This document shows positions 1 to 62,909 of a stretch of DNA of 64,000 nucleotides, one piece after another. Both the position numbers and the translations under genes were made by a program. The DNA comes from Campylobacterota bacterium (GTDB lineage: Bacteria; Campylobacterota; Campylobacteria; Campylobacterales; Thiovulaceae). The notes under the pieces were generated by a model. That model ran no database searches. It was not told the DNA's origin and saw only the letters and a list, made by a program, of their open reading frames with translations. The stretch is from the NCBI GenBank assembly GCA_030152305.1, contig JASKOM010000010.1, forward strand, positions 10,797-74,796, in the 5' to 3' direction. Positions within the stretch are counted from its first letter, which is position 1. Each line of letters begins with the position of its first letter.

Positions 1-2681
1 GATTATTGTTGCCATTTAAATAGACATACTGAAGAGCAACATCAGAAGCAAAAGTTGATAACTTTGTGATTGCTGTGCTACCAAGCTGTAATTGATATAA
101 AGATTTCAACGAAGAAACAGCTGATATATCCACCAGATTACTTAAATTCCATAATCCTAAATAACCTATTTTTGTTGATTTAACAAAAGACAAATCTTTT
201 ATATTTGAGTTGTCGTTTAAATTTAAACTTGTTAATTCTTTTAGATTCGCAATTGGTGAAAAATCAGTAATCGAACTGCCTTGAATACTTAGAGAGTGTA
301 AAGCTGTTAGTTTGCCAATAGATTGAACAGAAGATAATTTGTTTTGATTGTCATAAATACCCAAACTTGTTAAACCACTGTTTTTTTCTAAAGCTGAAAG
401 ATTATTAACAGAAGACCATTCTAAATATACATATCTAAGCGATGTTACATTTGATAAACCAGAAATATCTGAAAGATTTGCAAGACTATTAACATGAAAA
501 GTTTGTAAGTTTTTTAATCTTGATAAGTCAGGTAGGCTTGTAATTAAATAATTCCAACCATATTCATATAACCTCATATATGTTAGCTTAGTCATTTCGG
601 ATAAAGCAGATATATCTGTCAATTTAGTTATAGAACCATAAACATTTAAATATTCCAATGTCTGAATAACAGGCAATTTTGTTAGATTTGTTTCATTACC
701 AGAATAAATCGTAAGTTGTGTTAGCTTTGGAAGTTCAGACAATTCTGAAAAATCAGAAACTTTTGATGAATTAAAATAGACAGAATTTAAGTTTCGTAAC
801 TGTTTAATGCCTGTAATATCATTTACACTATTTGGAATAGTAATATCTGTGATCGAATCATATTGTTGAATTGTTGGCTCATCTGTTGGTGATAAATTAA
901 GCCGACTTCTGATTACTGACATTAACGATTCGTTTTCAACAATTGGAAAATCTCGCATTAAGTCTTGTTTCATTTCAACACCGTTATATTCGCCATATGT
1001 TTTAACTTCTAAATCAGAAATATAATTTCCATTTAAATTTAAATATTGGAATTTCGAAATAAGACCGCGTAAAACACCAAGAGCTGAAAGTTCATTATTC
1101 TCAAGATTAAGCGAACTTAACGAATTCATTTGTGAAATTGCTGAAATATCTTTAAGTTTGTTGTTTTTTGCCTCAAGTTTGATGAGGTTTTTTAATCCCG
1201 AAAGCGATGAAATATCTTCAACGAGATTTTTGCTAAGATCAAGTGTTCGGAGATTTTTTAAATTTGCCAAAAGCGATAAATCTTTGATTTTGTTATCTGT
1301 TAAATCAAGATTTTCTAAATTTGTTAATTTATCGATTCCTATTAAACTTTCAATTCCTGAACCAATACAAGACAATTCTTTAATCGAAGCTAATTGTTCA
1401 GCAGTTGGTTGTTCGCTATCAGTTAAACCTAATTTGCTATTAATACAGCTTTGCATTGAAACGAAAGAGCCGATAACTAATCTAACCTCTTTTGAAACTA
1501 AACCGTCTTCATCGGTAACAACAGCTGTGAAAACTCCACGATCGCCATATAATTTTGCTTCAGCCGAACCGTTTTGATCGATTCTAAAATCGCTACTTGT
1601 GAATGTATAAGTTAATTTATCACCAACTTGACCATCTGGATCGTTTCCAATAACGGTAACTTCGTGATAATCTTTTTGATCGTCATAAGTATGATCTTTA
1701 AATGTTTCGACATATGGAACAAAAAGAAGATTTACTCCAACATCTGAACCATAAACTCTGATAACGATACTGTGTGTTACATCACCAACTTGTAAGTCAA
1801 ACTTAGAAGCTCCATTTATCCATTGAGAGATATTGGATTTATCGATATTAAATCTTTTTAAGATTTTTCCATCATTAATAACATTGCCAAGTTTTCCAGT
1901 GAAATAGCTATCGTTTTTATCAGTGCTTAAGTTGTAATCAACAAAATATTTAATTAGGCTTTTTGCATTATCATTTTTTGCAGATAATGTATATATTGAG
2001 TCAGCATTAATATTGTCTTTTTTATCAAAGCCAAAATCTAAATAGACACGATTTTCTTTATTTGCTCGATCAATATCAGTAATTTTTGTAACTTGTGCAA
2101 CATCAACTGAATTTATATATTCCATATTAAATATTAAAGTTTTTGGAGTGTTGATTAAAAAAGAGCTTTCTTCAAATACTTGAGTTCCTATAAATCTATC
2201 TTCTTTTGAACCGTTGTAATCAAATGAAACTTCGAATTTAAGCGGTTTAGAAAAATTTACCTCATCAGAAATATTTGTTTCTGTGCCATTTATATAGTTA
2301 TCTTCTGTTAAATAATAATAAACTTGACTTGTATTAGCATCAAAACCTTCTTTTAACTGTTTTGTAACAATAAGTTCAGTTTTATCAGAATTGACTTCAT
2401 AAATAGAAACACTGATATTTTGATCAGCCAGATTTTGGTTTGAAAGCTTAAAGCTAGTAGGTAGCTTTTTAGTCGCTTTTATGTTATTTGGTGTTACTTC
2501 AGAAATAACATCGCCGTCAGCATTAATAAGAAACTTAAAGCTGTAAGCTCTTTTTGTTTCTTCAATTGGAGTAGTTAAGGAAGTGTTACTTCCACCCCCC
2601 CCCCCCGCAACCTGTCATAGAACCTACCAACAAAGCAGATGCAACAGATGAGAGGAAATAACTATTTAGTTTGTTTTTCAT
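1..2681 (-). CDS. Leucine-rich-repeat (internalin-like) surface lipoprotein. The signal peptide is out of frame with the body at a G12 tract. The 3' end lies outside the window.
   Basis: Manual minus-strand translation. ATG at 2681 gives MKNKLNSYFLSSVASALLVGSMTGC (lipobox), then GGGG-WK-stop. A second frame is open from 2593 to position 1 (>860 codons). It encodes an Ig-like N-terminal part followed by LxxLxLxxNxIxDIS repeats (e.g. LENLDLTDNKIKDLSLLANLKNLRTLDLSKN). It is absent from the ORF track because it runs off the edge. Confidence 0.65.
2595..2606. repeat. Homopolymeric C12 tract (G12 on the coding strand) immediately after the lipobox Cys codon
   Basis: Counted directly: tccaCCCCCCCCCCCCgcaa. 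It is the only long G/C homopolymer seen in the window. Confidence 0.9.
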
Positions 2682-2816
2682 AAATAGACCGATCCTAAAA
2701 AAGTATTTCTTAAGTTTTGCTTAAGATGTGAATTTGATTTATTTTTCACAGTTAATATTATCGGACATTTATTAAATCAATTAAACTCTTATAGCTAAAA
2801 CTTAAGGGCTTGAGTT

Positions 2817-2825
2817 TGGTAAAAT
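2817..2825 (+). promoter_or_regulatory. Extended -10 promoter element TGGTAAAAT upstream of proS
   Basis: TGnTAnAAT lies 34 nt upstream of the TTG start. The same element and spacing occur upstream of typA, rppH and the 56207 gene. Confidence 0.4.
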
Positions 2826-2858
2826 TCGCACATCTAATAAAAAAAATAAGGCATAAAA

Positions 2859-4583
2859 TTGAGATTCTCACGGGCTTATATTCCAACATCAAAAGAAATT
2901 CCAAACGATGCAGTTCTACCTAGTCATATTTTATTGGTTAGAGCTGGTTATATTAAAGGTGTCGCAAGTGGTTTATATAATTTTTTACCACTTGGCAAAA
3001 AAAGTCTCGACAAAATTCGAGCAATTGTAAAAGAAGAACTTGATCGTTCAGGTTGTCAAGAAGTTGATTTACCGTTTGTTACTCCAGCTGAATTATGGGA
3101 AGAAAGCGGTCGAATTGCAAAATTTGGCAAAGAACTTTTAAGATTTCGAGATCGAAAAGATGGTTTGTTCGTTCTTGGTCCAACTCACGAAGAGATGATG
3201 GTCGCGCTTGTTCGACATCAATTAAATAGCTATAAACAACTTCCACAAAATTTATATCAAATTAAAACTAAGTTTCGAGATGAAGCTCGTCCTCGATTTG
3301 GACTTATGCGAGGTCGCGAATTTATCATGAAAGATGGCTATTCTTTTCATGAAAATGAAAATGATATGAAACGAGAATTTTATTTAATGCAAGAGACTTA
3401 TAAACGAATATTTATAAGATTAGGTTTAGATTTTCGAGTTGTTGAAGCTGATAGCGGTGCAATTGGTGGAAGTGGAAGTCGTGAATTTATGGTTATTGCA
3501 AATAGCGGTGAAGATACTCTTGCTGTTTGTAATTCTTGTGATTACGGTGCAAATATCGAAACTGCAAAACGACGACCTCATCAACAAGAAAATATCGATC
3601 AAATCGAAATGGAATTTGCAAAATTTAAAACTCCTGATATCAAAACGATTGATGATCTCGCTAAATTTTTTCATGTTCCAGATTGGTTTATCGCTAAAGC
3701 CGTTGTGAAAAAAGCCATTTATGAAAACGGTTCGAAAATTGCAATATTCTTTGTTCGAGGTGGCGATGAGGTCGAAGAGAAAAAAGCTATCAATTCGATT
3801 AATGCTCTTGAACTTGTTGATCCAACTATTGAAGAAATCGAAAATGCTGGATTACATGCTGGTTTTATCGGTTTATTAAATTTGCCACAAAATGAAAATA
3901 TAGTTAAAGTAATTGACTTAGAATTAAAAAATGCTGAACCAATAATCACAGGTGCAAATGAACCAGATTTTCATTATATTGGTGTTTCGTTGAAAAATTT
4001 ACCAGATGATAAAAATAAATTTGCTGATTTGATTCGAGTTAAAGAAGGCGATAAATGTCTGCATTGTGAAAATGGTTCGTTGATTTATAAACGAGGTATC
4101 GAAGTTGGGCATATTTTTCAGCTTGGCACAAAATATTCTGAACCGCTTGGAGCTAATTTTTTAGATCGCGATGGCAAATCTCGACCAATGGTTATGGGAA
4201 CTTATGGAATTGGTGTTAGTCGTTTATTATCGGCAATCGTTGAACAAAGTCATGACGAAAACGGAATTGTTATGCCTTTAGCTGTTGCACCGTATAAAAT
4301 TAATATTTTAGTTTCGAATATAAAAAATAGCGATGAATTAGCTTTTGGTGAAAATATTTATTCGAACCTCATCGCAAAAAATATCGAAACGATTATCGAC
4401 GATCGAAATGAAAGATTCGGTTTTAAAATTAGAGATGCTGAATTAATCGGGTTTCCATATACTTTAATTATTGGCAAAAGTCTCGCAAATGGCAAAGTTG
4501 AAATTCTCGATCGTAAAAAAGCTGTTAAATTCGAAATCGATTCTGATCAGGCTTTAAATAAAATTCTGGAGCTTGTTGAGTGA
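2859..4583 (+). CDS. proS: Prolyl-tRNA synthetase
   Basis: 574 aa. Class II aaRS motifs are present (FRDEARPRFGLMRGREF, GHIFQLGTKYS, MGTYGIGVSR), along with an editing insertion and a C-terminal anticodon-binding domain. Confidence 0.95.
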   Translation: MRFSRAYIPTSKEIPNDAVLPSHILLVRAGYIKGVASGLYNFLPLGKKSLDKIRAIVKEELDRSGCQEVDLPFVTPAELWEESGRIAKFGKELLRFRDRKDGLFVLGPTHEEMMVALVRHQLNSYKQLPQNLYQIKTKFRDEARPRFGLMRGREFIMKDGYSFHENENDMKREFYLMQETYKRIFIRLGLDFRVVEADSGAIGGSGSREFMVIANSGEDTLAVCNSCDYGANIETAKRRPHQQENIDQIEMEFAKFKTPDIKTIDDLAKFFHVPDWFIAKAVVKKAIYENGSKIAIFFVRGGDEVEEKKAINSINALELVDPTIEEIENAGLHAGFIGLLNLPQNENIVKVIDLELKNAEPIITGANEPDFHYIGVSLKNLPDDKNKFADLIRVKEGDKCLHCENGSLIYKRGIEVGHIFQLGTKYSEPLGANFLDRDGKSRPMVMGTYGIGVSRLLSAIVEQSHDENGIVMPLAVAPYKINILVSNIKNSDELAFGENIYSNLIAKNIETIIDDRNERFGFKIRDAELIGFPYTLIIGKSLANGKVEILDRKKAVKFEIDSDQALNKILELVE

Positions 4584-6228: not shown

Positions 6229-7512
6229 ATGAAACGAGTTTTTTTTAAAACTTTCGGTTGTCGAACGAATATTTTTGATACCGAAGTTATGATAAAAAAT
6301 TTAGACAATTCTGAATTTATGCATGTTGAAAATCCAGAAATTGCTGATTTTATCGTTGTTAATTCTTGCACTGTTACAAATTCGGCTGATAGCAATGTTC
6401 GGCAATATGTTAATCGAGCAAAACGAGATTTTCCACATGCTGAAATTATTTTTACAGGTTGCGGAATCGCTGGTGAAGGTTTAAAATTATTTGATTCTGG
6501 AATCGTCAAAATGGCTTTTGGACATTCTGAAAAAGAAAATATAAAAACTATTTTATTAAATAACGAACGAAAATATATTATTAATGATTTAAATCATCTT
6601 GATAAAACTATTGTTGATAATTTTTCGAGTCGAAGTCGAGCTTTTATTAAAATTCAAGAAGGCTGTAATTTTAAATGTTCATATTGCATTATTCCGTCAG
6701 TTCGTGGTAATGCGAGAAGTTATAAAAAAGAGCATATATTAGAACAAGTTAGAAAATTAGCAGGAAATGGTTTTGGTGAAATTGTTTTAACGGGAACAAA
6801 TATTGGAAGTTATGGCGATTCTCGAAATAGTTTGGCAATGTTAATTCGCGAAATTTCTCAAATTCGAGGAGTTCGAAGAATTCGTTTGGGCAGTGTTGAA
6901 CCAAGTCAAATTACAGCTGATTTTATCGAAATGCTTGATGAAAAATTTTTAGGCAAATATTTACATGTTGCGATTCAATATTCGAATGATCAAATGTTAA
7001 AAATTATGAATCGTCGAAATCGAGTTGAAAGCGATTTGAAATTATTTGATAAATTATATTCTCACGGTTTTGCAATTGGAACGGATTTTATCGTTGGTCA
7101 TGTTGGTGAAACCGATGAAATTTTTAATGATGCTCTTAAAAAATTAAATGATTATCCTTTGACTCATATTCATCTTTTTAAATATAGTCGTCGCGATGGC
7201 ACAGCTTCAGCAAATATGAATTTTAAAGAAATTCATCCTGATCTTGTTCGAGAACGATTTGATTTAATCGACGACCTCATCAAAGTTAAAAGTGAAAAGT
7301 TTCGCGATGAGGTGATAAATAAAAAAACTGTTTTAAATGTTCTGTTCGAAAAAGAGATCGAAAAAATAGATGAATTTGCAATTTATGAAGGTTATGATCA
7401 ATATTTTTTTCCAGTAAAAATAAAAAGTAAAGAATCTCTTGAAGGTTATTGGGCAGAAATAAATGATTATAATTGGAAAAATGATTATAATTGGAAAAAT
7501 GATTTAAGTTAG
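6229..7512 (+). CDS. mtaB: Radical-SAM methylthiotransferase (MiaB/MtaB family)
   Basis: UPF0004 N-domain (FKTFGCRTNIFDTE), radical-SAM CNFKCSYCIIP, and GTNIGSYG. The C-terminus has a tandem NDYNWK-NDYNWK duplication. Confidence 0.7.
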   Translation: MKRVFFKTFGCRTNIFDTEVMIKNLDNSEFMHVENPEIADFIVVNSCTVTNSADSNVRQYVNRAKRDFPHAEIIFTGCGIAGEGLKLFDSGIVKMAFGHSEKENIKTILLNNERKYIINDLNHLDKTIVDNFSSRSRAFIKIQEGCNFKCSYCIIPSVRGNARSYKKEHILEQVRKLAGNGFGEIVLTGTNIGSYGDSRNSLAMLIREISQIRGVRRIRLGSVEPSQITADFIEMLDEKFLGKYLHVAIQYSNDQMLKIMNRRNRVESDLKLFDKLYSHGFAIGTDFIVGHVGETDEIFNDALKKLNDYPLTHIHLFKYSRRDGTASANMNFKEIHPDLVRERFDLIDDLIKVKSEKFRDEVINKKTVLNVLFEKEIEKIDEFAIYEGYDQYFFPVKIKSKESLEGYWAEINDYNWKNDYNWKNDLS

Positions 7513-7520
7513 GAATAAAA

Positions 7521-10289
7521 ATGTATAGCGAAGCAGAAATAAAAGCTATTGTAGAAGAAAATAGACTTTTAAAACAATGTAAGTTTGTTGTTGATGATTT
7601 TTTAATTATCACAAGAACAAATCCAGCTGGAATTATTACTTATGTTAATAAAAGTTTTATAAATATTAGCGAATATTCAGCAGATGAACTTGTAGGACAT
7701 AATCATAATATTGTTAGACATCCTGATATTTCAAAAAGTTTTTTCAGAGCGTTGTGGCATAAAATAAAAGTTCGCAAAGAAATATGGCGAGGAGTTGTAA
7801 GAAATTTATCAAAAAGTGGAAAAACTTATTATGTAGAATCTTATATTGCTCCCATTTTTGATGAACACGGCGAAGTTCTAGAATATATTTCACTTAGAAA
7901 AGATATTACAAAACGAGTTGAACGAGAAATCGAAATAAATAGTGAAAAGAAATTTGTTACAGATATTCTTGATTCTCAAGATAGCATAATTTTATTAACT
8001 ACTGAAGCTCAAGGCATGTTATATGTAAATCAGAAATTTTTTGATTATGTTGAATTTGCTACGATTGAAGAATTTAAACAAAATTTTAAATGTGTTGGTG
8101 AAATGTTTATTCCTGATAATAATTTAATTTTTAGTTATGCAATTGATTGGATCGAATATATTCATAATAATAGTGATAAAGTTCACAAAGCAAAATTAGT
8201 CGGTAAAAACGGTAAAGTTCATTATTTTTCTATTAGAGTTAATAAACTTCAAGCATCAAAAAGTAGAATTAAGCAATATAATCTTGATGAAAAACATCCT
8301 TATTTGTATTTAATGACATTGTCTGAAATTACAGATCTTGAAATTGCTCTTCAAAAAGCAAAAGCTGGAATGGATGCAAAAAGTCGGTTCTTAGCAAATA
8401 TGAGTCATGAAATTAGAACACCATTAAATGGCATTTTAGGTTTCACTGAATTAATGCGAAAAAGTCAATTAGATTCTGATCAAGAAAAATATGTAAATAC
8501 GATTTCAAGTAGTAGCAAAACTTTATTAGGCATTATTAATGATATTCTCGATTTTTCAAAAGTTGAAAGTGGTAATTTAAGTCTTGAATATATTAAATTT
8601 AGTCCTGTTCATGAATTTGAACCTGCTTTGAATTTATTTAATGCAAAAATGCTTGAAAAACGAATTAAATATTTATTGTTTATTGATCCAATGCTTCCAA
8701 AATGGCTTGTTCTTGATCCATTGAGAATTAAACAAGTTATTTCAAATCTTGTTGGAAATGCTATTAAATTTACTCCTGAAAATGGAAAAGTAGCTATTGA
8801 TATTAGTTATAAACGAAATCCAAAAGGTCGTGATATCGAATTATTATTTAGTGTCGAAGATAGAGGAATTGGAATTTCTCCTGAACAACAAAAACGAATT
8901 TTTACTCCATTTTCTCAAGCTGACGAAAGCACAACTCGTAAATTTGGCGGAACAGGTTTAGGTTTATCGATTAGCAAAAGTTTCATCGAATTAATGGGTG
9001 GCAAATTAAACTTAGAAAGTGAAATCGGTGAAGGCAGTAAGTTCTCGTTTAATATTCCAAATATCGAAGCATCACACGAAAAAAGTGTTGAAACTCGCTG
9101 GTTTTCTGGTATCGAAACGATTATTTATGAACCTAAGTTTTCGATTGTGCAAGATGAGGTCGAATTATTAACGAAATATTTATTGGCTTTTGGTTTAACT
9201 GTTAAATTAGAAAGCGATTTTTCACAACTTCATCTTTCACGGTTAGTTTGGATTTTTTCAGCAACAATTCCAGAAGGTGCTTTGCATGAAATAAAAAATA
9301 TTGCAGAAAAAACTCCTGTTATATTTATCGAAAATTATAATATTAAAAATAGTCATAAATTTGGTTCTGGAATAAAAAGAGTTCAATTGCCGTTTAATAT
9401 GTCTTCGATTTATGATGTTCTTATTAATGGATTGCAAATTAAATTAGAAAATGAACTGTTAGAAAATTCAAAAAAAGGCACTTTGCATTTTGAAAATTTA
9501 TCGATTCTCGTTGCCGAAGATAACGATGTTAATCAAATGTTTATCGAGATTTTGTTAAAAGGTTACGGATTAGAAACTGATATCGTTGAAAATGGCGAAA
9601 TGGCTATTCAAAAAGCATTAGAAAAAAAATATGATTTAATTTTAATGGATATAAATATGCCAATTCTTGGCGGTATTGAAGCAACTCATGGAATTCGCAA
9701 AAACGGAATTAATGGCGATAAAATTCCAATTATTGCTTTAACGGCTAATGCAATGGTTGGCGATCGCGAACGATTTATATCTGAAGGCATGGACGATTAT
9801 TTAACAAAACCGATCGATATAAAAGATCTCGAGCGAATATTAATTAAATATTTGTCTAATACGGCAGTTAAAAATAGTAATAAAAATATATCTAATATTG
9901 TTAATAATGTTGAAAAAATTGAGAAAGAGAAAATTATGTTAGAAGTTCCTGTAAATAGTTTTGAGCAAATTTCAAAAGCTGTAATTTCAAAAGAATTAGG
10001 CTTACCTGAAATGTTCGTTAATAAATTAGTTAGTAAATTTATAGATAGTTTAGAAGCTGGTGTTCGTGATGTCGAAAATGCAATTTCGAATAAAAATTGT
10101 GAAGATATTAAAAACTTCGCTCATAAATTAAAAGGCTCGTCGGCAAATTTAAGATTTAAATATCTTGCTGAAATCATGAAATCGATTGAATATGCTGGAA
10201 AAGATTGCAAAACTGACGGCTATGAAAGTTTAGTTGAAGCCATGAAAAATGAAGTTGCCGTTGTTAAAAGTTTTGCTAGTAAAAAATAA
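7521..10289 (+). CDS. PAS-domain hybrid sensor histidine kinase with receiver and HPt domains
   Basis: PAS (NHNIVRHPD...WRGVVRN), H-box MSHEIRTPLNG, N-box NLVGNAIKFT, G-boxes DRGIGI and GGTGLGLSI. Receiver: ILVAEDNDVNQ...DLILMDINMP...KP. HPt: HKLKGSSANL. Confidence 0.9.
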   Translation: MYSEAEIKAIVEENRLLKQCKFVVDDFLIITRTNPAGIITYVNKSFINISEYSADELVGHNHNIVRHPDISKSFFRALWHKIKVRKEIWRGVVRNLSKSGKTYYVESYIAPIFDEHGEVLEYISLRKDITKRVEREIEINSEKKFVTDILDSQDSIILLTTEAQGMLYVNQKFFDYVEFATIEEFKQNFKCVGEMFIPDNNLIFSYAIDWIEYIHNNSDKVHKAKLVGKNGKVHYFSIRVNKLQASKSRIKQYNLDEKHPYLYLMTLSEITDLEIALQKAKAGMDAKSRFLANMSHEIRTPLNGILGFTELMRKSQLDSDQEKYVNTISSSSKTLLGIINDILDFSKVESGNLSLEYIKFSPVHEFEPALNLFNAKMLEKRIKYLLFIDPMLPKWLVLDPLRIKQVISNLVGNAIKFTPENGKVAIDISYKRNPKGRDIELLFSVEDRGIGISPEQQKRIFTPFSQADESTTRKFGGTGLGLSISKSFIELMGGKLNLESEIGEGSKFSFNIPNIEASHEKSVETRWFSGIETIIYEPKFSIVQDEVELLTKYLLAFGLTVKLESDFSQLHLSRLVWIFSATIPEGALHEIKNIAEKTPVIFIENYNIKNSHKFGSGIKRVQLPFNMSSIYDVLINGLQIKLENELLENSKKGTLHFENLSILVAEDNDVNQMFIEILLKGYGLETDIVENGEMAIQKALEKKYDLILMDINMPILGGIEATHGIRKNGINGDKIPIIALTANAMVGDRERFISEGMDDYLTKPIDIKDLERILIKYLSNTAVKNSNKNISNIVNNVEKIEKEKIMLEVPVNSFEQISKAVISKELGLPEMFVNKLVSKFIDSLEAGVRDVENAISNKNCEDIKNFAHKLKGSSANLRFKYLAEIMKSIEYAGKDCKTDGYESLVEAMKNEVAVVKSFASKK

Positions 10290-12970: not shown

Positions 12971-13261
12971 TTGATTATAGATCAAAAATTATTGTCAAAA
13001 CTTGAACATCTTTCTTATTTAAAAATAGAAGACAGCAAACGAGAAGCGATTATTTCGCAACTTGAGGAAATTTTAGAATTCGTTGAGAATCTAAATGAAT
13101 TAAATACTGAAGGACTTTCAAGCCGATTTTCGCTTTCAAATGAAAGTTTAACTTTACGAGAAGATGTTAAAAATGTTGATCGAAATGTAAATATCGATGT
13201 TTTAAATCATGCACCTCATCGGGACGGAAATTTCTTTTTTGTTCCAAAAATTATCGAATAG
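12971..13261 (+). CDS. gatC: Asp/Glu-tRNA amidotransferase subunit C
   Basis: 96 aa with a typical GatC sequence (LEHLSYLKIEDSKREAIISQLEEILEFVENLNELNTEGL...LREDV). TTG start. Confidence 0.85.
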   Translation: MIIDQKLLSKLEHLSYLKIEDSKREAIISQLEEILEFVENLNELNTEGLSSRFSLSNESLTLREDVKNVDRNVNIDVLNHAPHRDGNFFFVPKIIE

Positions 13262-21667: not shown

Positions 21668-21841
21668 TTATAAAATATCTGGAGCATGTGGTGGAAATTC
21701 TGAACTATCAGTTGTTGGAACAGGATGAGGAACAGTTGTTGGATTTTGAACGACATTATCATGTGTAATATTAGTTTCGACATCTCCGCAAGATATAAAA
21801 AATAGCGAAATTACCGCTAAAAAAGAAAACCTCATCGACAT
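21668..21841 (-). CDS. Small (57 aa) putative lipoprotein, below the ORF-track length cutoff
   Basis: Manual translation gives [57 protein letters not shown]. There is a signal peptide plus lipobox. The start lies 2 nt after the upstream gene's stop. Confidence 0.4.
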
Positions 21842-47141: not shown

Positions 47142-48202
47142 TTGTTTAAATTATTTCTTACCTCATCGCTATCAATTTCAATTATGTGGAGTTCATCAAT
47201 TTCTGGAGTTGGTTTTGGTTCAACAATTGAACAAGCGAAAAAAGAAGCACTTGCTGATGTCATTTCAAATATTGGAGGAATGGTTTCATCCTCTTTTTCA
47301 CAAACTCAAATTATAAATGGAAATAATATAGCTGAAAATAATCGAGAACGAATAATTAAAGTTGATCAAAATTATCCGTTATTAATGCCAACATTTTCTC
47401 AACCCGAACAAGAAAATGAGCAATATAAAATTACGGCAACAATTGATGGCTTAAAATCAGCTAAGCAATATATTAATCAAATGGCAATATTAGATAAAGG
47501 TATAAAACTTGAAATAGCTGAAGCAGAAAAACAGCAAGATACTCGTTTAAAAATAGAACTTTATGAAAATGTTATTTCTCAAATGACTGAATTTGAAAAA
47601 TATTCAACAATGGCAAGTATTCTTGATATAAAAAACACACCAATTTTAATGATTTCTCCGTCTGTAATCGAAAATGAAATAGCAAAATTATCTTTTCAAA
47701 ATAACAATAACGATCTCATAAAATATGATCGAGAAGAATTTGTTGTTAAATTAAAATCTGATCGTTCTGATTCTAATAGAGTTTTGCCACTTGGCGAACA
47801 TTACGAACTTTTTTTGCAAGTTTCACATCGTGGCTATTTTTATATGATAAATCATTCAATTAATGACAACAACGAAAGTTATTCATATCTTGTTGAATTT
47901 GATGAAAATAGCCAAAATATTGGCAAATTTATTACTGAAATTAAAAATAATCAAATAAATGGTTTTCAATTGGTAAATTCGAAGTTATCGAACCTTTAGG
48001 TAATGAATATATTGAAATTGTTGTTTCTCAAAAGCCTTTTAAATCACTGCCTAAATTTAAAAAAGTTACTAAATATGATGAGGTAGTTTATATGCTTGAA
48101 GGTAGAGCATCAAAAAATATACGAGAACTTGAAATAAATAGAGCCGTTAAAAAATTAAATGAAAAAGTTGCTAAATTTTATTATAAAAGTATTGCGAATT
48201 AA
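47142..48202 (+). pseudogene. LPP20-like / DUF4384-like secreted protein interrupted by a frameshift
   Basis: Frame A (47142-47999) ends at TAG. Frame B opens at 47951 and continues to 48202: SNKWFSIGKFEVIEPLGNEYIEIVVSQKPF...KSIAN*. That is the expected continuation of the domain. Confidence 0.55.
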
Positions 48203-51899: not shown

Positions 51900-51928
51900 A
51901 CCTCATCGCATAAATTAATCGATGAGGT
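51900..51928 (+). terminator. Terminator-like hairpin built from an inverted ACCTCATCG / CGATGAGGT pair after lysC
   Basis: Perfect 9-bp stem with an 11-nt loop, followed by CTAATTTTC. Confidence 0.6.
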
Positions 51929-55266: not shown

Positions 55267-56025
55267 TTAGTTAATATTTATTTTATTAAAAAACGAATCA
55301 AGATGAAAATTACTAAAAGATCTATTTATGGACTCGAACATCGATGGATGTTTTTTTTCTAAGTCTGCTAACATTTCTTTCATTTCAGCTCGAACATGAG
55401 GCATTTTTATATTAAACTTCATCGATGGACAGGCATCATTTCCAATTAATGGAAAATTATTTTTCAAAGCTCCATCGAATAGTTGTCTTTCTCGAATTTG
55501 AATCAACGGACGAATAATTTCAAGTCCATTTTCTGCTTGATATTTTGGAGCTAATGCTCTCATTGTGCTGTTATAAAACATGTTCATAAAAAAACTTTCT
55601 ACGGCATCGTCAAGATGATGACCTAAAGCTAATTTATTAAAACCTAATTTTGTTGTTGCACTATATAAAGCTCCTCGTCGCATTCTCGAAAAAAAAGAAC
55701 AATACGAACTATTTTCTCTGATTTTGTCTGAAGCAATATCAAAAATTTCTGTTTTATATATTTGATGAGGTATCTCATATTCTTTTGTATGAGCAATTAA
55801 ATTATCAAAATTTTCACCCATTCCATAATCAATCGTAACTGCAAGAAATTCAAATTTAAACGGTGCATGTCTCATTGTTCTTTTTAAAATATGAGCCAAC
55901 ATCAACGAATCTTTACCGCCACTTAAACCTAAAATAATTCGATCACCTTCGTTAATTAAATTAAATTCGCTGTTTGTTTTGCCAACTTGTCTTAATATTT
56001 TTTTACTTATTTCTATTTTTTGCAA
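55267..56025 (-). CDS. ttcA: tRNA 2-thiocytidine biosynthesis PP-loop ATPase (TtcA family)
   Basis: PP-loop LSGGKDS, CSFFSRMRRGALY, GHHLDD. Confidence 0.8.
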   Translation of the reverse strand: MQKIEISKKILRQVGKTNSEFNLINEGDRIILGLSGGKDSLMLAHILKRTMRHAPFKFEFLAVTIDYGMGENFDNLIAHTKEYEIPHQIYKTEIFDIASDKIRENSSYCSFFSRMRRGALYSATTKLGFNKLALGHHLDDAVESFFMNMFYNSTMRALAPKYQAENGLEIIRPLIQIRERQLFDGALKNNFPLIGNDACPSMKFNIKMPHVRAEMKEMLADLEKKHPSMFESINRSFSNFHLDSFFNKININ

Positions 56026-56722: not shown

Positions 56723-58828
56723 ATGTTCGCTAAAAAATATCTTGATTTTTTACTATCATTCAGAACAATATATTTATTTATTATTGTTGTTTCAACTTTA
56801 TTTTTTGTTGTAAATATAGACAGCAAACAACTTTCTAACGATGAACGAGCTTGGCTTATTGGCACAAGTCAATATAACAAACTAATTCAAAAAGGAGCAA
56901 CATCTCAAGACGGTTCAAAAGTTGAGATTTTTCTTAAAGATGGCAAAATTAATACAGCCAATATAAATGAACTCCGAACAATATTTAATTTTTTAATTAC
57001 TAAAACTTCTCAAGAGTCTGTATCCTCTTTTTTTAATCATAAATTTGCCACTCTTCAAACTGATGGCGAAAGTAGTTTTATTGAACTTGCTTCACTGGAA
57101 AAATTATCAGATGATCTTATTTTTGATAAATTACATTCTCATTTAAATGACTTTTCTCAATTTTTTGGTAGTGATGGATCTATTATTTTTTATGTTTATG
57201 GTTTTAATATTAATAATTTAGAATTAAATACAACTCTTGATTATAAAATTTCTCAATTTGTGCCGTATTCAACACCTTTTGATGAAAGCATATTTTTATT
57301 GGGAACTTTAATTGTTTTAACGATTTTATTATCGATTTTTTTTAGAAATTTATCAGCTCCGTTAATTGGTATTTCTTTTATTATTGCTACCTCATCAGCA
57401 ACGATATATATATTCAAAGAAATAATCGGAGACTATACTGCTCATATTTCGATATTAATTTTATCGTTTGTAATTTCTTTTTTAGATTTTTTATATGTGT
57501 ATTATAGATGGTTCATTCTTCAACAAAAACGAGATTCACAAAATTCGATAATAAGAACAATTGAACGAACTTTTGCTCCTGTAACTGTAACAAAAATAAT
57601 TAATATTATTGGCATAGGTTCGTTGATATTCGTTGAAACAGATATTTTAAAATCTCTTGGAGCAATGGTAATTATTTCATCAATAACAGGCATGTTTTAT
57701 ACATATACATATTTGCCTTTAGTTTTTTCATATTTAAATATCACAAATCCACATACTAAATCAGAACATATGTTTTCATTGTTCTCTGAACAGATTAAAA
57801 ATTATAATAAACATTTTTTATATGTTTTTATTTATGTTACAGCTTCTATGATGATTTTTGGATTATATTATTTTAATAATTCACATGAAAATAAAAATAT
57901 TGATAATTCTAGAGTTATTAAACTTGCAATTGATGTTAATCAAACCGAAATTTCCATCGAATTATTAGAAAAATTACAACAATTTTCTCAAATTATTAAT
58001 TATGATCAACAAAATAATAATATCGATGAGGTAGAAAAAATTGTTTCGATATATACAGAAATAAATAGCTTATATAAACAAGAACAAAATAAAGAATTAA
58101 ATTTATCATCGTCAGATTTTGATCTTGACAGATATATTTTTATGCTCGATATGTTTGGTGGAACAGAAAGTTATTTTGATAAAAATCAAACCAGAATAGA
58201 TATTTATCTAAAAGAAAGTTCAAGCAAAAATAAAATTTTAAATAATTTAGAAAAAAGTAAAATGGAGTTTTCGATTATTGACACTGATTCGTTATTGCAA
58301 ACAGCAATAAATGAATCGTTTATGATTCTTGCATCGTTGTTAATTTTTATATTATTTATTATTTTTATTGCAATTTTGCTTTTAACAAAAAGTTATCTTT
58401 ATGGATTAATTGGTCTTTTTTTAACGATCGTTCCGTTAATTTGGTTTTTGTCAATCGTTGCAATATTAAATATAAATTTGTCAACTGATATGTTTATAGC
58501 AATGATTATTGCAGTAGCTATATCAAGTGATTCGATGATACATTTATTGCATTATTATAATAAATTAGAACAAGAAAATAGATTTGCCGACAACGGTATT
58601 AACCGAATATTTTTATATGTCGAATCGCCTTTGATATTTGGAAATATTATTCTTGCTGTTACATTTTTAATGTTAGCCTTTTTTGGAATAGCATCACTTG
58701 TAACAATTGGAATTTATTCAACAATGATTGTTTTATTTTCATTAATGACAGATATTTTTATTTTACCAGTTGTTATTTTAGAAACTAGAGCAAAATGGAG
58801 AGAACAAATTGTTATCAACAGCAATTAA
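56723..58828 (+). CDS. RND-superfamily / MMPL-like membrane exporter
   Basis: 701 aa with two blocks of about 5-6 TM helices separated by a large soluble loop, as in MMPL/HpnN-type transporters. Confidence 0.55.
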   Translation: MFAKKYLDFLLSFRTIYLFIIVVSTLFFVVNIDSKQLSNDERAWLIGTSQYNKLIQKGATSQDGSKVEIFLKDGKINTANINELRTIFNFLITKTSQESVSSFFNHKFATLQTDGESSFIELASLEKLSDDLIFDKLHSHLNDFSQFFGSDGSIIFYVYGFNINNLELNTTLDYKISQFVPYSTPFDESIFLLGTLIVLTILLSIFFRNLSAPLIGISFIIATSSATIYIFKEIIGDYTAHISILILSFVISFLDFLYVYYRWFILQQKRDSQNSIIRTIERTFAPVTVTKIINIIGIGSLIFVETDILKSLGAMVIISSITGMFYTYTYLPLVFSYLNITNPHTKSEHMFSLFSEQIKNYNKHFLYVFIYVTASMMIFGLYYFNNSHENKNIDNSRVIKLAIDVNQTEISIELLEKLQQFSQIINYDQQNNNIDEVEKIVSIYTEINSLYKQEQNKELNLSSSDFDLDRYIFMLDMFGGTESYFDKNQTRIDIYLKESSSKNKILNNLEKSKMEFSIIDTDSLLQTAINESFMILASLLIFILFIIFIAILLLTKSYLYGLIGLFLTIVPLIWFLSIVAILNINLSTDMFIAMIIAVAISSDSMIHLLHYYNKLEQENRFADNGINRIFLYVESPLIFGNIILAVTFLMLAFFGIASLVTIGIYSTMIVLFSLMTDIFILPVVILETRAKWREQIVINSN

Positions 58829-59060: not shown

Positions 59061-59068
59061 ATTATTAA

Positions 59069-59866
59069 TTAATCAACTATTTTTTTATAAACACCTCGAA
59101 CGGCACCACCAACCGCAACGGCTGGAGCAGTTCCGAGTGTGTAACCTTGAGCGATTTTTTCGCCAACGAAACCAAGAGTTTTTGTTGTGATGTCATTAAC
59201 AATATTATCACCAAAAACACCATCAACAACTGTTTCAACTCGATTTCGACCTTTAACTCCAGCAACTTCAAGATGTTCTTCAAGTCGTTTTAACATATTT
59301 TGAACAAAATCTGAGCTTTTATTAAATTGACTTGAAATTACTTCCATATTTTCTACTTTAGCAAGTTCTTCATCAAGACTTTTTGTAACTGCTTCTCTAA
59401 ATTTTTGTTTTGCATCATTTAAAGCACCTTTTTTTTCAGCAACTATTTCTGATGTCATTACTTCTTTTACTTCTTCTTGTTTTACTTCAGTATTTTCTAC
59501 TTGAACAGTTGTTGTTGTTTCTTCTTGTTTTTCAACAATAATTTCTGCCATATTTTTAACCTCTTCTTTAATTTCAACTTTAGTTTCTTCTGATTTTATT
59601 TCAGTTTGAGCTTGTTTTTCTTCGATAACTGTTTCAACTTTTGCTACCTCATCAACAGCAACAGGTTTTAATTCATTATTAATTTCAACAGTTACAGAAT
59701 TCGAAACAGTTGTTTCTGTTGTTATATTTGCAACTTCTATTTTATTTTGAATTTCAATAGTTTCTTCAAATTTATCTTCGCCTATTTCAGCTACAACCAT
59801 ATTTGGCTCCTCTTCTAATTCTAAAGATCTGGCTTCAGTGGATCTTTTCACTTTTTTCTTTGACAT
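59069..59866 (-). CDS. Hypothetical acidic E/V/K/T-rich protein with a Gly/Ala-rich C-terminus
   Basis: 265 aa ORF. No family was recognised. Confidence 0.45.
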   Translation of the reverse strand: MSKKKVKRSTEARSLELEEEPNMVVAEIGEDKFEETIEIQNKIEVANITTETTVSNSVTVEINNELKPVAVDEVAKVETVIEEKQAQTEIKSEETKVEIKEEVKNMAEIIVEKQEETTTTVQVENTEVKQEEVKEVMTSEIVAEKKGALNDAKQKFREAVTKSLDEELAKVENMEVISSQFNKSSDFVQNMLKRLEEHLEVAGVKGRNRVETVVDGVFGDNIVNDITTKTLGFVGEKIAQGYTLGTAPAVAVGGAVRGVYKKIVD

Positions 59867-59926: not shown

Positions 59927-61570
59927 TCATCTTAGTTTATCGATAAAACTTGAAAGATATATCCAATCTATTATTAATTTTTCAAATTTAATATCATTAC
60001 TATCAATATTTAAAAGCATATTTCCTAATGATTGAGTTATTTCATCAATTGATAAAGACTTTGCGACGGCATTTAATTCGTTTATTAAATTTCGTGTTGC
60101 CAATAGCGAATCATGATTCAAACCATTTTCTATTTTATCTTTTGATTTATCAAATAATTTAATAAAAGTATTAACTAGATCTTGAAATAAAATATCTGGC
60201 ATTGATGAACGATTAATCGACGATATAAAACTTCTAACTTCTTTGGCATCTAATTTAATAATTTCGCCACCACCACCAAGTTTATCATTTAAAAATGATA
60301 TTTTTTTATAAAGATAATTAACATCTTTTAAGACTTCTGAACTTGTTTTATACTGTTTTAATATAATTTTTTCTATTAAATCATATATATCTACTAATCT
60401 TAAATTAAGAGCTAAACCTTTAATTAAAAACACACCATTTTTTACATTTTTTAGTTGATTATTTTCGATGGCTTCATATACAAATTTTTTAATTTGATTT
60501 GCATGATGAATAAAATCGATTAAGAAATCTATTAGATTTGCTCGTGAAATTCTTAATTCTTGAGATACATCATCGAGATTATAATTATCTGAATAAAATG
60601 TTTTACCTGAATGAACACCTTGCACAACGATATTAATATCTTTACCACTAATTAAAGCATCTATTTCTGATTGTTTTAACGGTAATACAGAATCTTCTTG
60701 TTTATTTATTTCATCTGTATTTATATTTATATTCGTGTTTGTGTTTGTGTTTGTGTTTGTGTTTGTTTGTAACGACGATGAGGTATTTTGATTATTAGTT
60801 TGTGAAATATTTAAATTTTCAGTTTCTTGTTCTGTGTAATCAGTATCAAAAGTTTTAAAGAATTCATCTGGAGAAGTTAAAAGTTTATGAGATCGTTCGT
60901 TATCAACATTAGTATTAATATTTTTTGATTTATCATTTTTGTCTGATTCTGAATAGTCAAAATCATAATTACTGTCATCATAATCATCTTGATATTTCAA
61001 ACTAGAAACATCTGGTTTTTCAACTTGAGAATCTTTTTTTATATTAATATTATTCGGTTCATCTTCCTGTTTAATGTCATTAGAATCTTTAAATTTAAAA
61101 GTTTGCGATTCAGCAGAGTCAAAAAACATTGCAGATTCTGTTTTATAATCAACACTAAATTCATCTTCATTATTCGAATAAAAACTTTTATTATTATTTT
61201 GAGAAGAAACATGTTGAGGAACTTCTAATTCGATCGTATCACTTTCATAATCAGTTATCGAAGTTATATTTATTAAAAAACCTTTATTAGGATCATTTAA
61301 AAAAAACATATTATCAATTGACATTGAAATTTTATAAAAATTATTATCTCCGCCTTTGATAATAGCTTTAGCTTTTTCGCCTTCTTGAAGAATATAATCT
61401 ATCCATAAAATATGTTTAAAGTTGCTAACAAAACCTTTTTTTTCTATAAATAAATTTGCAAAATCACCAGAAATACGATATTTCATAGCATTAAACGATG
61501 GAAAATTCAATTTTTTAACATACGATTCACTGATTCCAATAAATTCATAATTACTGTTATAAACAATCAC
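59927..61570 (-). CDS. Hypothetical cytoplasmic protein: PAS-like N-terminus, D/N/S-rich linker with (TN)n, HPt-like helical C-terminus
   Basis: 547 aa. The N-terminus is YEFIGISESYVKKLNF...FANLFIEKKGFVSNFKHILWIDYI. The C-terminal FLIKGLALNLRLVDI resembles the HKLKGxxxNLG region of HPt domains but without the His. Confidence 0.45.
   Translation of the reverse strand: MIVYNSNYEFIGISESYVKKLNFPSFNAMKYRISGDFANLFIEKKGFVSNFKHILWIDYILQEGEKAKAIIKGGDNNFYKISMSIDNMFFLNDPNKGFLINITSITDYESDTIELEVPQHVSSQNNNKSFYSNNEDEFSVDYKTESAMFFDSAESQTFKFKDSNDIKQEDEPNNINIKKDSQVEKPDVSSLKYQDDYDDSNYDFDYSESDKNDKSKNINTNVDNERSHKLLTSPDEFFKTFDTDYTEQETENLNISQTNNQNTSSSLQTNTNTNTNTNTNININTDEINKQEDSVLPLKQSEIDALISGKDINIVVQGVHSGKTFYSDNYNLDDVSQELRISRANLIDFLIDFIHHANQIKKFVYEAIENNQLKNVKNGVFLIKGLALNLRLVDIYDLIEKIILKQYKTSSEVLKDVNYLYKKISFLNDKLGGGGEIIKLDAKEVRSFISSINRSSMPDILFQDLVNTFIKLFDKSKDKIENGLNHDSLLATRNLINELNAVAKSLSIDEITQSLGNMLLNIDSNDIKFEKLIIDWIYLSSFIDKLR
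60735..60764 (-). repeat. (GTGTTT)5 hexanucleotide microsatellite, in frame, encoding (TN)n
   Basis: Five perfect units counted. It translates to TNTNTNTNTN within the 59927-61570 ORF. Confidence 0.9.
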
Positions 61571-61602: not shown

Positions 61603-62154
61603 TTATTGAATAACGAAATCTGTAAAAAACACATTTACGATTTTGCCATCTTTTAAATTTTTATTAATTTCAGCGACGATTTGATCTTTTAATTTATCTT
61701 TACCTTTTTCTGTTGAAATTTCTTCAAGATTTTTCGAGCTAGAAATTCTAATAATAATATCTCGAATAACAGGTATTTTTGTGTTAAGTTCAACTAAAAG
61801 TTCTTCAGTTTCTAATTCAAGATTAACTTCAAGTTTTAAATATCTTCTGCCATTTTCACTTAAAAGATTAACGATAAATTTATTTAAAGCGAACATTGGT
61901 CCAACTTTCAAACTAACTTTTCGTCGAGATGCTTTTATGTCGTTGCCTTCAACTGGTTGAGACATTGCTTGAATTTGTTGTTGTTCTGGTTGTTCTTCAC
62001 TTCCACCAGATAAAACAAAAGCTACTAAGCCACCAACAACTAATAATAATACTAAAAAAGCACCTACAATAATAATTATTAAATTGTTCTTTTTTTGTCC
62101 TTCTTCAGGATTTGCAGGTTTTTCTTCAACAGCGGGTTGTTTTTTATCAGCCAT
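61603..62154 (-). CDS. fliL: Flagellar basal-body-associated protein FliL
   Basis: Single TM helix. FIVNLLSENGRRYLKLEVNLE...IPVIRDIII...GKDKLKDQIVAEIN...VFFTDFVIQ. Confidence 0.8.
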   Translation of the reverse strand: MADKKQPAVEEKPANPEEGQKKNNLIIIIVGAFLVLLLVVGGLVAFVLSGGSEEQPEQQQIQAMSQPVEGNDIKASRRKVSLKVGPMFALNKFIVNLLSENGRRYLKLEVNLELETEELLVELNTKIPVIRDIIIRISSSKNLEEISTEKGKDKLKDQIVAEINKNLKDGKIVNVFFTDFVIQ

Positions 62155-62173
62155 TTTTTAACACACCTTATAT

Positions 62174-62737
62174 TTATTTACAATAATCAGCTAAAAGCCC
62201 ATTTTTTAGGGCATCTTTTGTATCTTGTCCAACAAGAATCGAAACTATATCAAGAGCAAAACAAATAGCTGTTCCTGGACCTCTTGAAGTAACAATTTTT
62301 CCATTAATTACAACTTGCGAATCAGAACGATATGCGAAATTGTTAATTTTTTCTTCAACCGATGGATAACAAGTAAAATCTCCATTTAAAATTCCAGCTT
62401 TATAAAGAGCAAACGGTGCAGCACAAATTGCTCCAACGAATTTTTCTTTATAATAAAATTCTTGAATTAATTTTTGAACATGATTATCTGTCGAAAGAAT
62501 ATTTGTTCCACCAAAACCACCTGGTAAAATTATCATGTCAAATAAATGAACATCAATAATAGACTCTAATAATATATCCGCTTTGATATTAATTTGATTT
62601 GCACCAGTAACTGTTAAATTATCAGAATCAACACTTCCAGTAATTACTTCTATACTAGCTCTTCTTAAAACATCAATAATAGCAACAGCTTCTATTTCTT
62701 CAAATCCTTTTGCTAAAGGAATCAAGACTTTAGCCAT
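62174..62737 (-). CDS. DJ-1/PfpI-family protein (YajL/ThiJ-like)
   Basis: LPGGFGG and the nucleophile elbow GAICAAP. Confidence 0.85.
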   Translation of the reverse strand: MAKVLIPLAKGFEEIEAVAIIDVLRRASIEVITGSVDSDNLTVTGANQINIKADILLESIIDVHLFDMIILPGGFGGTNILSTDNHVQKLIQEFYYKEKFVGAICAAPFALYKAGILNGDFTCYPSVEEKINNFAYRSDSQVVINGKIVTSRGPGTAICFALDIVSILVGQDTKDALKNGLLADYCK

Positions 62738-62909
62738 GTAAAAAGCACTCCTTATTTTTTATATTTCATATAATCATACCAAAAGTTTAAACACTCACGA
62801 TACTGAAATTGATAACATTATTTATATTATTATTTTTTTGTTTATTAAAATAAATACCAAGAAGACAAAAAGGATGAGAATTATTTTAAAACCTCATCCA
62901 ATTCAAGTA

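Follow-up and report, generated by a model that had tools for sequence, protein, structure and literature searches.

Uptake sequences are treated in a 2025 comparative preprint as a feature of the Neisseriaceae and the Pasteurellaceae (10.1101/2025.10.24.684340). The first of these families carries the DNA uptake sequence (DUS), whose core GCCGTCTGAA is read by the minor pilin ComP, and the second the uptake signal sequence (USS), with the 9-mer core AAGTGCGGT. In the phylum Campylobacterota, Campylobacter jejuni reportedly admits DNA by the CtsM methyl mark at RAATTY. Abundant chromosomal octamers of other kinds are the highly iterated palindrome HIP1 of cyanobacteria (GCGATCGC) and the signals Chi and KOPS (FtsK-orienting polar sequences). 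Here we analyse a 64-kb stretch of Campylobacterota DNA (contig JASKOM010000010.1; the whole stretch is hereafter called the window), in which an initial annotation, made from the letters of the DNA, had noted the frequent word YGATGAGGT as a candidate uptake signal. Its exact 8-bp core, GATGAGGT (or ACCTCATC on the opposite strand), is the subject of this paper. The word is probably a DNA uptake-enhancing tag of self DNA in the Thiovulum clade, of the same kind as DUS and USS; for this reading, in which the uptake step is the part that we infer, we estimate a probability slightly below 0.6.

Results

Copy number, sharpness and orientation of the word

In an exact search of both strands, the window (29.4% G+C) contained 40 copies of the word, 20 in each orientation and about one per 1.6 kb. 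The initial annotation had counted 39, having overlooked the minus-strand copy at 3575-3582, and its coordinates are exact apart from 22737 and 44324, which should read 22727 and 44314. Only 0.74 +/- 0.80 copies (maximum 3) are expected from 100 dinucleotide-preserving shuffles of the window, and 1.34 from an order-3 Markov model. For comparison with codon-aware nulls we used a first-pass gene set, in which 31 copies lie inside coding sequence; shuffling of synonymous codons within each gene gave 2.5 +/- 1.5 copies (maximum 7), and shuffling of codon order 0.55 +/- 0.70. The over-representation is about 30-fold overall, and under the codon-aware nulls, a check already proposed with the initial annotation, the ratio of observed to expected stays above 12 rather than near 1.

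Among all 7- to 10-mers of the window, GATGAGGT and its one-base extensions rank first; the remaining strong k-mers derive from a 54-bp tandem repeat of one gene and from a homopolymer tract. The base at -1 is C in 26 of the 40 copies, T in 11, A in two and G in one, which bears out the earlier description of a C, or else a T, in front of the motif, and the base at +1 is mostly A or C. Flank conservation is limited to positions -1, +1 and +2, and further out the sequence is random both in the window and in its relatives. A preference for T at -25 in the window was dropped from consideration, as the relatives do not show it.

The word is sharply defined. No one-mismatch variant reaches more than six copies in the window, and in 204 kb of pooled clade DNA (eight loci of different genomes) the perfect 8-mer occurs 125 times against 5.6 expected, and the 24 one-mismatch variants together 87 times against 125 expected. 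This depletion is spread over the positions, with no single transition neighbour selectively depleted. Mildly depleted near-matches beside a hugely enriched perfect word would be in keeping with a bias of repair or gene conversion (Vsr-like, or methylase-linked as for HIP1) that turns near-matches into the perfect word with no part played by uptake; a giant cell holds many copies of its genome, and conversion between them might amplify such a bias; Thiovulum cells are indeed very large (PMC9938260). Deamination repair, however, predicts a selectively depleted transition neighbour, GATGAGGT is not a palindrome, and neither a Vsr nor a methylase gene is present in the window, and we consider this explanation improbable. 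The counts of near-matches also bear on the idea that the word is the site of an abundant, clade-specific chromosomal protein (of the nucleoid, or of condensation or segregation), kept by selection on chromosome structure. Strand symmetry, even dispersal and conservation above background would suit such a site, and giant cells may need an unusual organisation of their nucleoid. Yet nucleoid proteins usually tolerate degenerate sites, and one-off variants are not enriched here; selection on any one site would moreover be far too weak to impose rare codons and altered residues on some thousand positions. A role of this kind is, in our judgement, decidedly unlikely.

Copies are spaced roughly exponentially (coefficient of variation 0.91 over 117 gaps in the clade), and the longest motif-free gap of the window (14660-20124, 5.5 kb) is within the range of chance. 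The two orientations are interleaved along the window, within every 10 kb, and are balanced over the clade loci as well (61 plus, 64 minus), where genic copies divide into about 53 sense and 50 antisense; the initial annotation had rightly denied any polarity. The 8-bp length and the over-representation do lie in the range of polar chromosome signals, that is of Chi (recognised by AddAB or RecBCD) or of FtsK/SpoIIIE guides of the KOPS or SRS (SpoIIIE recognition sequence) type. The balanced, interleaved orientation nevertheless all but excludes Chi and KOPS at the scale of these loci, and an enrichment of 30-fold or more is much above the values known for them, which makes a polar signal very improbable.

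Host clade and distribution of the word

The window contains no rRNA or tRNA, and on protein similarity we take its organism to belong to the Thiovulum clade (Campylobacterota). Its ProS is 86% identical to the protein of CP091137.1, a closed 1.72-Mb genome (GCA_021582295.1) that is the closest to the window, 73% identical to proteins of Joint Genome Institute (JGI) metagenomes and 67% identical to that of Thiovulum sp. ES; its TypA is at most 78% identical to those of Sulfurimonadaceae, Sulfuricurvum and Helicobacter. Sequence identical to the window was also found in Logan run SRR24719468 (L081), which therefore adds nothing on polymorphism.

For comparison, eight further loci of the clade were drawn from seven additional assemblies, with ProS identity down to 64%, and the word is abundant throughout. 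There are 20 copies in 19.4 kb of Thiovulum sp. ES (L083), 14 in 21.7 kb of the NCBI assembly GCA_024281175.1 (L086), 14 in 20.9 kb of a European Nucleotide Archive (ENA) metagenome (L088), 10 in 20.6 kb of the locus with the 64% identical ProS (L089), and 7 in 14 kb and 15 in 21.7 kb of two loci from JGI metagenomes (L084 and L087, respectively). CP091137.1 is represented by two loci, L211 with 11 copies in 24.3 kb and L082, which consists mostly of ribosomal-protein and translation genes, with 5 copies in 21.7 kb. The pooled clade DNA has 136 copies in 228 kb, about 0.6 per kb, with 0.45-1.0 per kb in the individual loci and less in L082. Nearly all copies of the relatives are genic, and every frame is used.

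Outside the clade the word falls to background. As controls we used 80 typA loci of Sulfurimonadaceae, Sulfuricurvum and Helicobacter (TypA identity at most 78%, no Thiovulum genome among them), which contain 108 copies in 1.44 Mb, with 0.03-0.14 per kb in the sister groups; a locus whose ProS is 62% identical and whose G+C content is 59.5% (L090) has none. In a metagenome scan for the inverted pair ACCTCATCG-N(2-30)-CGATGAGGT, the matches listed were mostly chance ones in GC-rich DNA, and among them L113 alone looks Thiovulum-like (29% GC, 8 copies in 5.7 kb). Enrichment in related genomes, which the initial annotation had named as a point to be checked, was found in loci of the Thiovulum clade and only there.

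Gain, loss and conservation of sites

In a codon alignment of nine proS genes, motif sites fall at 11 separate columns. All three sites of the window recur in L082 and one of them in L084, and the sites of more distant relatives lie elsewhere. Substitutions gave rise to the sites, in part with a change of residue (DELE to DEVE, YHYIG to YHLIG), and no indels occur at motif sites in this alignment. At one spot the word reads DEV in L083 and L087 and Met-Arg in L086, where it is shifted by four bases, i.e. by one codon plus one base. Sites are also conserved above background: in four orthologous genes with 68-85% nucleotide identity between the window and CP091137.1, six of seven window sites are intact in the latter, compared with 17.8% of all other 8-mers (p = 2e-4).

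Some regions are devoid of the word. It is missing from the ribosomal-protein operon of L082, which spans 9.7 kb, and motif-free stretches cover a restriction-modification (R-M)/KilA-N island in L084 and Bro-N/helix-turn-helix (HTH) islands in L087 and L089, which are three small islands only. The island of L084, at 5841-7653, encodes a DNA-methylase/Eco47II pair together with KilA-N. R-M genes of the MmeI family (type IIL) lie near proS in L086 (18813-21560) and L089 (20615 onward). A search of viral contigs with a Bro-N protein of one prophage-like island gave no match.

Reading frames and codon use

After correction of one gene model, 32 of the 40 copies in the window are genic, equally divided between sense and antisense, and eight are intergenic. 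Sense copies read Asp-Glu-Val (DEV; 15 copies) or Met-Arg (one), and antisense copies Thr-Ser-Ser (TSS; eight), Pro-His (four) or Leu-Ile (four); all five stop-free frames are occupied, in agreement with the initial annotation. Single in-gene copies make up about 80-95% of the motif copies. In the genes of the window, 14 of 17 DEV tripeptides are written GATGAGGT and 8 of 15 TSS tripeptides ACCTCATC, although GAG accounts for only 7.6% of Glu codons and ACC for 3.9% of Thr codons; TCG, which had likewise been called rare, is less clearly so, at 14% of Ser codons. The use of rare GAG and ACC codons in DEV and TSS, in combination with five frames on both strands, argues for selection or drive acting on the DNA and not on protein or mRNA.

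These data leave little room for explanations in which the word would be the core of a miniature inverted-repeat transposable element (MITE) or a repetitive extragenic palindrome (REP), or would owe its selection to the peptide it encodes (DEV) or to an internal Shine-Dalgarno-like function. GAGGT does resemble the Shine-Dalgarno core, and DEV is the commonest reading. The antisense half of the genic copies, however, excludes the peptide and Shine-Dalgarno readings; the copies fall in five frames, and only one in the window is spaced from a start codon as a ribosome-binding site would be. Flanks that are unconserved beyond +/-2 nt, as the initial annotation had argued, and indel-free alignments in which sites arise in place rule out mobile elements. 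Explanations of this group are extremely improbable.

Hairpins and the private words of sister lineages

Three close inverted pairs of the word occur in the window. Two are intergenic, at 3' ends of genes, and fold into strong hairpins: 40498/40529, which forms a 13-bp stem (-16.6 kcal/mol, z = -6.5), and 51900/51921 (-13.1 kcal/mol, z = -5.6). The third (7274/7306) is intragenic. A further copy, at 62891, has a degenerate partner in a canonical hairpin with a U-run, which brings the hairpins with the motif at 3' ends to three in the window; one more was found in L211, where the orthologous gene (1442 aa) ends in a stop codon that an inverted pair follows at once. The initial statement on inverted pairs in intergenic terminators thus holds only in part: two pairs stand at gene ends, with 62891 as a partial third case, the remaining pair lies inside a gene, and pairing over the clade does not exceed a Poisson expectation. 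A simple terminator scan of the window passed over the motif hairpins, whose loops are longer than the 8 nt that it allows.

We also screened the 80 control typA loci for over-represented 8-mers of their own. Several lineages of Sulfurimonadaceae and other Campylobacterales have private dispersed words, at 0.2-0.8 per kb: TTCCACATGCC(A) in three loci (L026, L044, L009), the palindrome (C)TTACATGTAA(G) in seven (L001, L002, L003, L024, L027, L048, L061), CTACATCC in two (L080, L056) and TGCGTGAGC in one (L073). These words are mutually exclusive between the lineage groups, and they sit in genes, in several frames, and between genes. No comparable private words were found in the Helicobacter and Sulfuricurvum loci of this screen. 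For three of the four words, two inverted copies of the word private to the lineage make up a hairpin directly 3' of the typA stop, namely in all three loci with TTCCACATGCC, in L048 and L061, and in L080 and L056. The construction of the same typA terminator from a different private word in each lineage is, as we interpret it, a hallmark of DUS and USS.

A word private to its lineage is also known from cyanobacterial HIP1, and one of the sister words is palindromic, both of which would suit a bias of repair or gene conversion; own-word terminator hairpins, however, are a known by-product of uptake sequences that repair bias does not predict. Binding by a chromosomal protein would leave the unrelated sister words, and the typA terminators built from them, unexplained. 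It is conceivable, and not quite an even bet, that GATGAGGT belongs to a radiation of uptake specificities, in which the private words of Thiovulum and of several Sulfurimonadaceae lineages would be read by a putative receptor of the Cts/type-IV-filament competence machinery. A CAT(G/C) core common to the lineage words was considered as a sign of dialects with a single ancestor and rejected as statistically too weak to claim.

Competence machinery

Competence genes, which the initial annotation had suggested looking for, do not occur in the window but are listed in the supplementary annotation tables that Bizic et al. (2022, PMC9938260) give for Thiovulum. The Movile genome has entries for comEA and dprA and for a ctsD/pilQ-like secretin; strain ES has entries for comEC, comEA and ctsW/comFC. 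Type IV pilus genes are reported in all six Thiovulum genomes (PMC9938260), and genes for pseudopilins, T2SSF and T2SSE (MshE-type ATPase) were seen in the relatives' loci L084, L085, L086 and L088. A pair of pseudopilin genes is conserved in L084 (1215-2145), L085 (881-1811) and L088 (4073-5018). The first gene encodes 140 aa with N_methyl/T2SSG domains, and the second 176-181 aa with a weak N_methyl match in L084 and L085 and none in L088. In L084 and L085 the pair adjoins proS, in L088 it is found some 4 kb upstream of that gene, and in the window no such pair stands beside proS. We regard its products as candidate DNA receptors for the motif.

The word might also be read indirectly, through a methyl mark: a clade-specific, perhaps orphan, methyltransferase would modify GATGAGGT, and only DNA so marked would be taken up, with the methylatable word then enriched by the same molecular drive. 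CtsM and RAATTY in C. jejuni are a known precedent within the phylum; an asymmetric 8-mer that contains adenine fits the specificities of type IIG, IIL and III enzymes, MmeI-family genes are common in the relatives' loci, and the sister word TTACATGTAA is palindromic, as is typical of methylase targets. On the other hand, the window encodes no methyltransferase, and the RAATTY of C. jejuni is short and not known to have been driven to over-representation. We hold this variant to be unlikely as such; an uptake role of some kind, with the methyl-marked version counted in, is likely.

Gene context of the copies

All 40 copies are listed with their context in Table 1. Several of the genes concerned, and of their neighbours, have features of their own. 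An open reading frame (ORF) at 1158-1577(+) was rejected as spurious; the true gene lies on the minus strand and runs from 2681 to beyond the window start. It contains a run of 12 C at 2595-2606 (poly-G on the coding strand), directly 3' of a lipoprotein signal peptide with the lipobox LVGSMTGC, and past the poly-G the leucine-rich-repeat body of the protein runs on in another frame. The arrangement suggests a contingency gene subject to phase variation, as in Campylobacter and Helicobacter, or else an assembly slip.

In the ORF at 36011-38560 a 54-bp unit, encoding 18 aa, is repeated in tandem at 37337-37994 (12.2 near-identical copies); the ORF also has two exact copies of a 96-bp unit at 36908-37108, and its 849-aa protein has no Pfam match. 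The 1465-aa protein of 28876-33273(-) has no Pfam or NCBIfam match; a set of 5.8 billion proteins contains only about 10 homologues, each of them from this clade, with 58% identity in CP091137.1, and its gene adjoins one for an MlaD-domain protein in the window genome and in CP091137.1 alike. A lone gene with the CRISPR-associated RAMP Pfam domain lies at 41900-43366(+), with no CRISPR array and no other cas genes nearby. The gene at 19245-21125(-) encodes a caspase-like protein (EACC1-associated type) with an Lcl-like C-terminal domain, and that at 14108-17542(-) a choice-of-anchor-I protein of 1144 aa; both are large surface or signalling proteins typical of the clade.

Table 1. Copies of the word and the associated terminator-like hairpin in the window. 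Strand is that of the motif or hairpin; readings are those in the frame of the host gene.
Position	Strand	Context	Reading	Remarks
1181..1188	+	antisense in minus-strand leucine-rich-repeat lipoprotein gene (2681 to beyond window start)	Leu-Ile	
2259..2266	-	sense in leucine-rich-repeat lipoprotein gene	Asp-Glu-Val	
3575..3582	-	antisense in proS	Pro-His	conserved in L082 and L084
3765..3772	+	sense in proS	DEV	conserved in L082; other relatives DEL
4366..4373	-	antisense in proS	Leu-Ile	conserved in L082
5260..5267	+	sense in ORF 5005-6228	DEV	
7274..7281	-	antisense in radical-SAM gene 6229-7512	Leu-Ile	intragenic inverted pair, left arm
7306..7313	+	sense in radical-SAM gene 6229-7512	DEV	intragenic inverted pair, right arm
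9153..9160	+	sense in hybrid histidine kinase gene 7521-10289	DEV	
13213..13220	-	antisense in gatC 12971-13261	Pro-His	
14652..14659	-	sense in choice-of-anchor-I gene 14108-17542(-)	DEV	
20125..20132	-	sense in caspase-like gene 19245-21125(-)	DEV	
21829..21836	-	intergenic, 7 bp 3' of stop of gene 21843-24392(-)		T-rich run after; in no hairpin
22727..22734	+	antisense in beta-propeller gene 21843-24392(-)	Pro-His	
23848..23855	-	sense in beta-propeller gene 21843-24392(-)	DEV	
24028..24035	+	antisense in beta-propeller gene 21843-24392(-)	Thr-Ser-Ser	
26141..26148	-	sense in dut (dUTPase) 26083-26511(-)	DEV	
27084..27091	+	intergenic, greA (26508-26996, -) / ORF 27244-28800(-)		no hairpin
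27389..27396	+	antisense in ORF 27244-28800(-)	TSS	
29126..29133	+	antisense in 1465-aa clade-specific gene 28876-33273(-)	TSS	conserved in L211
30260..30267	-	sense in 1465-aa gene 28876-33273(-)	DEV	conserved in L211
32825..32832	+	antisense in 1465-aa gene 28876-33273(-)	TSS	not conserved in L211
33427..33434	-	sense in ORF 33233-33913(-)	Met-Arg	conserved in L211
36737..36744	-	antisense in repeat-protein gene 36011-38560(+)	TSS	
39339..39346	+	sense in glmU-like gene 39162-40484	DEV	
40498..40505	-	intergenic, convergent genes 39162-40484(+) / 40542-41144(-)		hairpin, left arm
40529..40536	+	intergenic, as 40498		hairpin 40498/40529, right arm; U-rich tail in minus-strand reading only
44314..44321	-	antisense in ORF 44058-45641(+)	Leu-Ile	
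44880..44887	+	sense in ORF 44058-45641(+)	DEV	
47160..47167	-	5' edge of ORF 47142-47999(+)	TSS if TTG start	17 bp upstream if ORF starts at 47184, the start called in L081
48077..48084	+	intergenic, upstream of typA		GAGGT 7 nt before ATG of called 36-aa ORF
51900..51907	-	intergenic, 30 bp past stop of aspartokinase gene (50650-51870)		hairpin, left arm
51921..51928	+	intergenic, as 51900		hairpin 51900/51921, right arm; then U-rich tail
54796..54803	+	sense in ABC transporter gene 53509-55212	DEV	
55764..55771	+	antisense in ATP_bind_3 (TilS-like) gene 55267-56025(-)	Pro-His	
57389..57396	-	antisense in ORF 56723-58828(+)	TSS	
58025..58032	+	sense in ORF 56723-58828(+)	DEV	
59646..59653	-	sense in ORF 59069-59866(-)	DEV	
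60777..60784	+	antisense in ORF 59927-61570(-)	TSS	
62872..62899	-	11 bp past stop of gene 62910-63740(-)		terminator-like hairpin
62891..62898	-	in hairpin 62872..62899		5' arm (GGAUGAGG); degenerate 3' arm CUCAUCC, then UUUUU

Discussion

Taken together, a short, exact and strand-symmetric word that is enriched 30-fold or more in spite of codon usage, is spaced in Poisson fashion, is written into genes in every possible frame, turns over by point substitution within its clade, is conserved above background, avoids the most constrained genes, enters some hairpins and has private counterparts in sister lineages matches, in our analysis, the product of molecular drive known from the Neisseriaceae and Pasteurellaceae, and would be hard to get otherwise. 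If GATGAGGT is such an uptake tag, a surface-exposed component of the competence machinery would have a higher affinity for double-stranded DNA with the 8-9 bp word than for DNA that lacks it. The machinery would, in Campylobacterota, be the Cts/type-IV-filament-like system, with pseudopilins and a secretin of the CtsD/PilQ type; the bound fragment would be pulled into the periplasm with the help of ComEA, and a single strand would pass through ComEC and be recombined by DprA and RecA. Alleles with the word would be taken up and recombined more often than alleles without it, so that point mutations that create the word would be transmitted preferentially (molecular drive). Copies would then build up at positions where the protein can accommodate them, and at a density of about one per 1.6 kb the drive would come into balance with purifying selection on coding regions. 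Binding to the duplex would be blind to the directions of replication and transcription, which would explain the strand symmetry, and some intergenic copies may have been co-opted as arms of 3' hairpins. Both the assignment of the bias to the uptake step and the identity of the receptor are points that we infer.

Several observations weigh against this interpretation. Natural transformation of Thiovulum, of which there is no pure culture, is unreported in the literature searched. We know of no discrimination at uptake in Campylobacterota other than RAATTY methylation in C. jejuni, which involves no long word. No competence gene is encoded within the 64-kb window. The MmeI-family gene of L086 carries four copies of the motif, and the depletion of islands rests on the three small ones described above. 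Close inverted pairs account for 6 of 125 copies in 204 kb of clade DNA, which is not above what Poisson spacing would give, and roughly half of DUS and USS copies are found in predicted terminators (10.1101/2025.10.24.684340). The refuting tests named in the initial annotation, as far as they were run in silico, all favour its uptake-signal interpretation, with the qualification that terminator pairing is much weaker than in Neisseria or Haemophilus.

We found no prior description of the Thiovulum word in the literature searched. A search joining Thiovulum with 'uptake sequence', which did not cover the 2012 paper on the ES genome, returned none, and a Thiovulum genome paper mentions neither the motif nor competence. 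Searches on uptake sequences in Campylobacterota or Sulfurimonas gave nothing relevant, the term co-occurring with Epsilonproteobacteria only in a 2009 review of pathogens. The motif string itself turned up in papers on primers and caspase-DEVD constructs only, and no report of preferential uptake of motif-bearing DNA was found in the literature searched.

If the interpretation as an uptake tag is true, the word would be the first of its kind outside the Neisseriaceae and Pasteurellaceae, and a third unrelated case from another phylum; biased uptake and recombination would then repeatedly write species "watermarks" into genomes, and uncultured Thiovulum would be naturally transformable. Should the radiation of specificities be real as well, uptake sequences would be no oddity of two proteobacterial families but a recurrent, fast-diversifying system of self-recognition in environmental Campylobacterota, including uncultured giant sulfur bacteria, and the words of the sister lineages would form a natural series for the study of receptor-motif co-evolution. 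In practice, the word could serve in metagenomes as a marker for binning and contamination and as a detector of foreign islands, and its inclusion in DNA constructs could open Thiovulum or Sulfurimonas to genetic work. Even if the 8-mer had no role in uptake, its precedence over codon usage at about a thousand sites per genome throughout the clade would call for an explanation.

Among the known systems, Chi and KOPS resemble GATGAGGT as over-represented 8-bp chromosomal words, but they are strongly co-oriented with replication and only few-fold enriched, whereas GATGAGGT has no polarity and a far higher enrichment. Cyanobacterial HIP1 is likewise a hyperabundant octamer found throughout genes, conserved in its clade and debated in function; it is, however, a known methylase target and a palindrome, whereas GATGAGGT is asymmetric; the sister word TTACATGTAA is palindromic as HIP1 is. 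C. jejuni belongs to the same phylum, probably shares the uptake machinery (Cts, ComEC, ComEA, DprA) and also admits self-like DNA. Its signal, by contrast, consists in the methylation of a short, degenerate palindrome not known to be driven to over-representation, and the Thiovulum word is long, exact, asymmetric and enriched 30-fold or more.

The likeness to uptake sequences proper is closer. The USS of the Pasteurellaceae has a core of 8-9 bp with weak flank preferences, lies mostly in coding sequence, distorts the usage of codons and peptides with a preference for tolerant protein positions (compare PMC2817400), and is strand-symmetric with some inverted pairs serving as terminators; its helically phased AT-rich flanks are not seen around the Thiovulum word. 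With the DUS of the Neisseriaceae the word shares its short, exact form, a frequency of roughly one per kb, both orientations, and a location in genes in several frames as well as in 3' hairpins. Both are private to a clade whose related lineages have other versions, both accumulate by point substitution, and genes of a competence machinery of the type-IV-filament type are listed for Thiovulum genomes too. The Thiovulum word differs from the DUS in its unrelated sequence and in its phylum, Campylobacterota. About half of DUS copies lie in predicted terminators (10.1101/2025.10.24.684340), compared with about 5% of Thiovulum copies in inverted pairs and about 20% in intergenic positions. Finally, the versions of DUS differ from each other by one or two bases, whereas the words of the sister Campylobacterales lineages differ completely.

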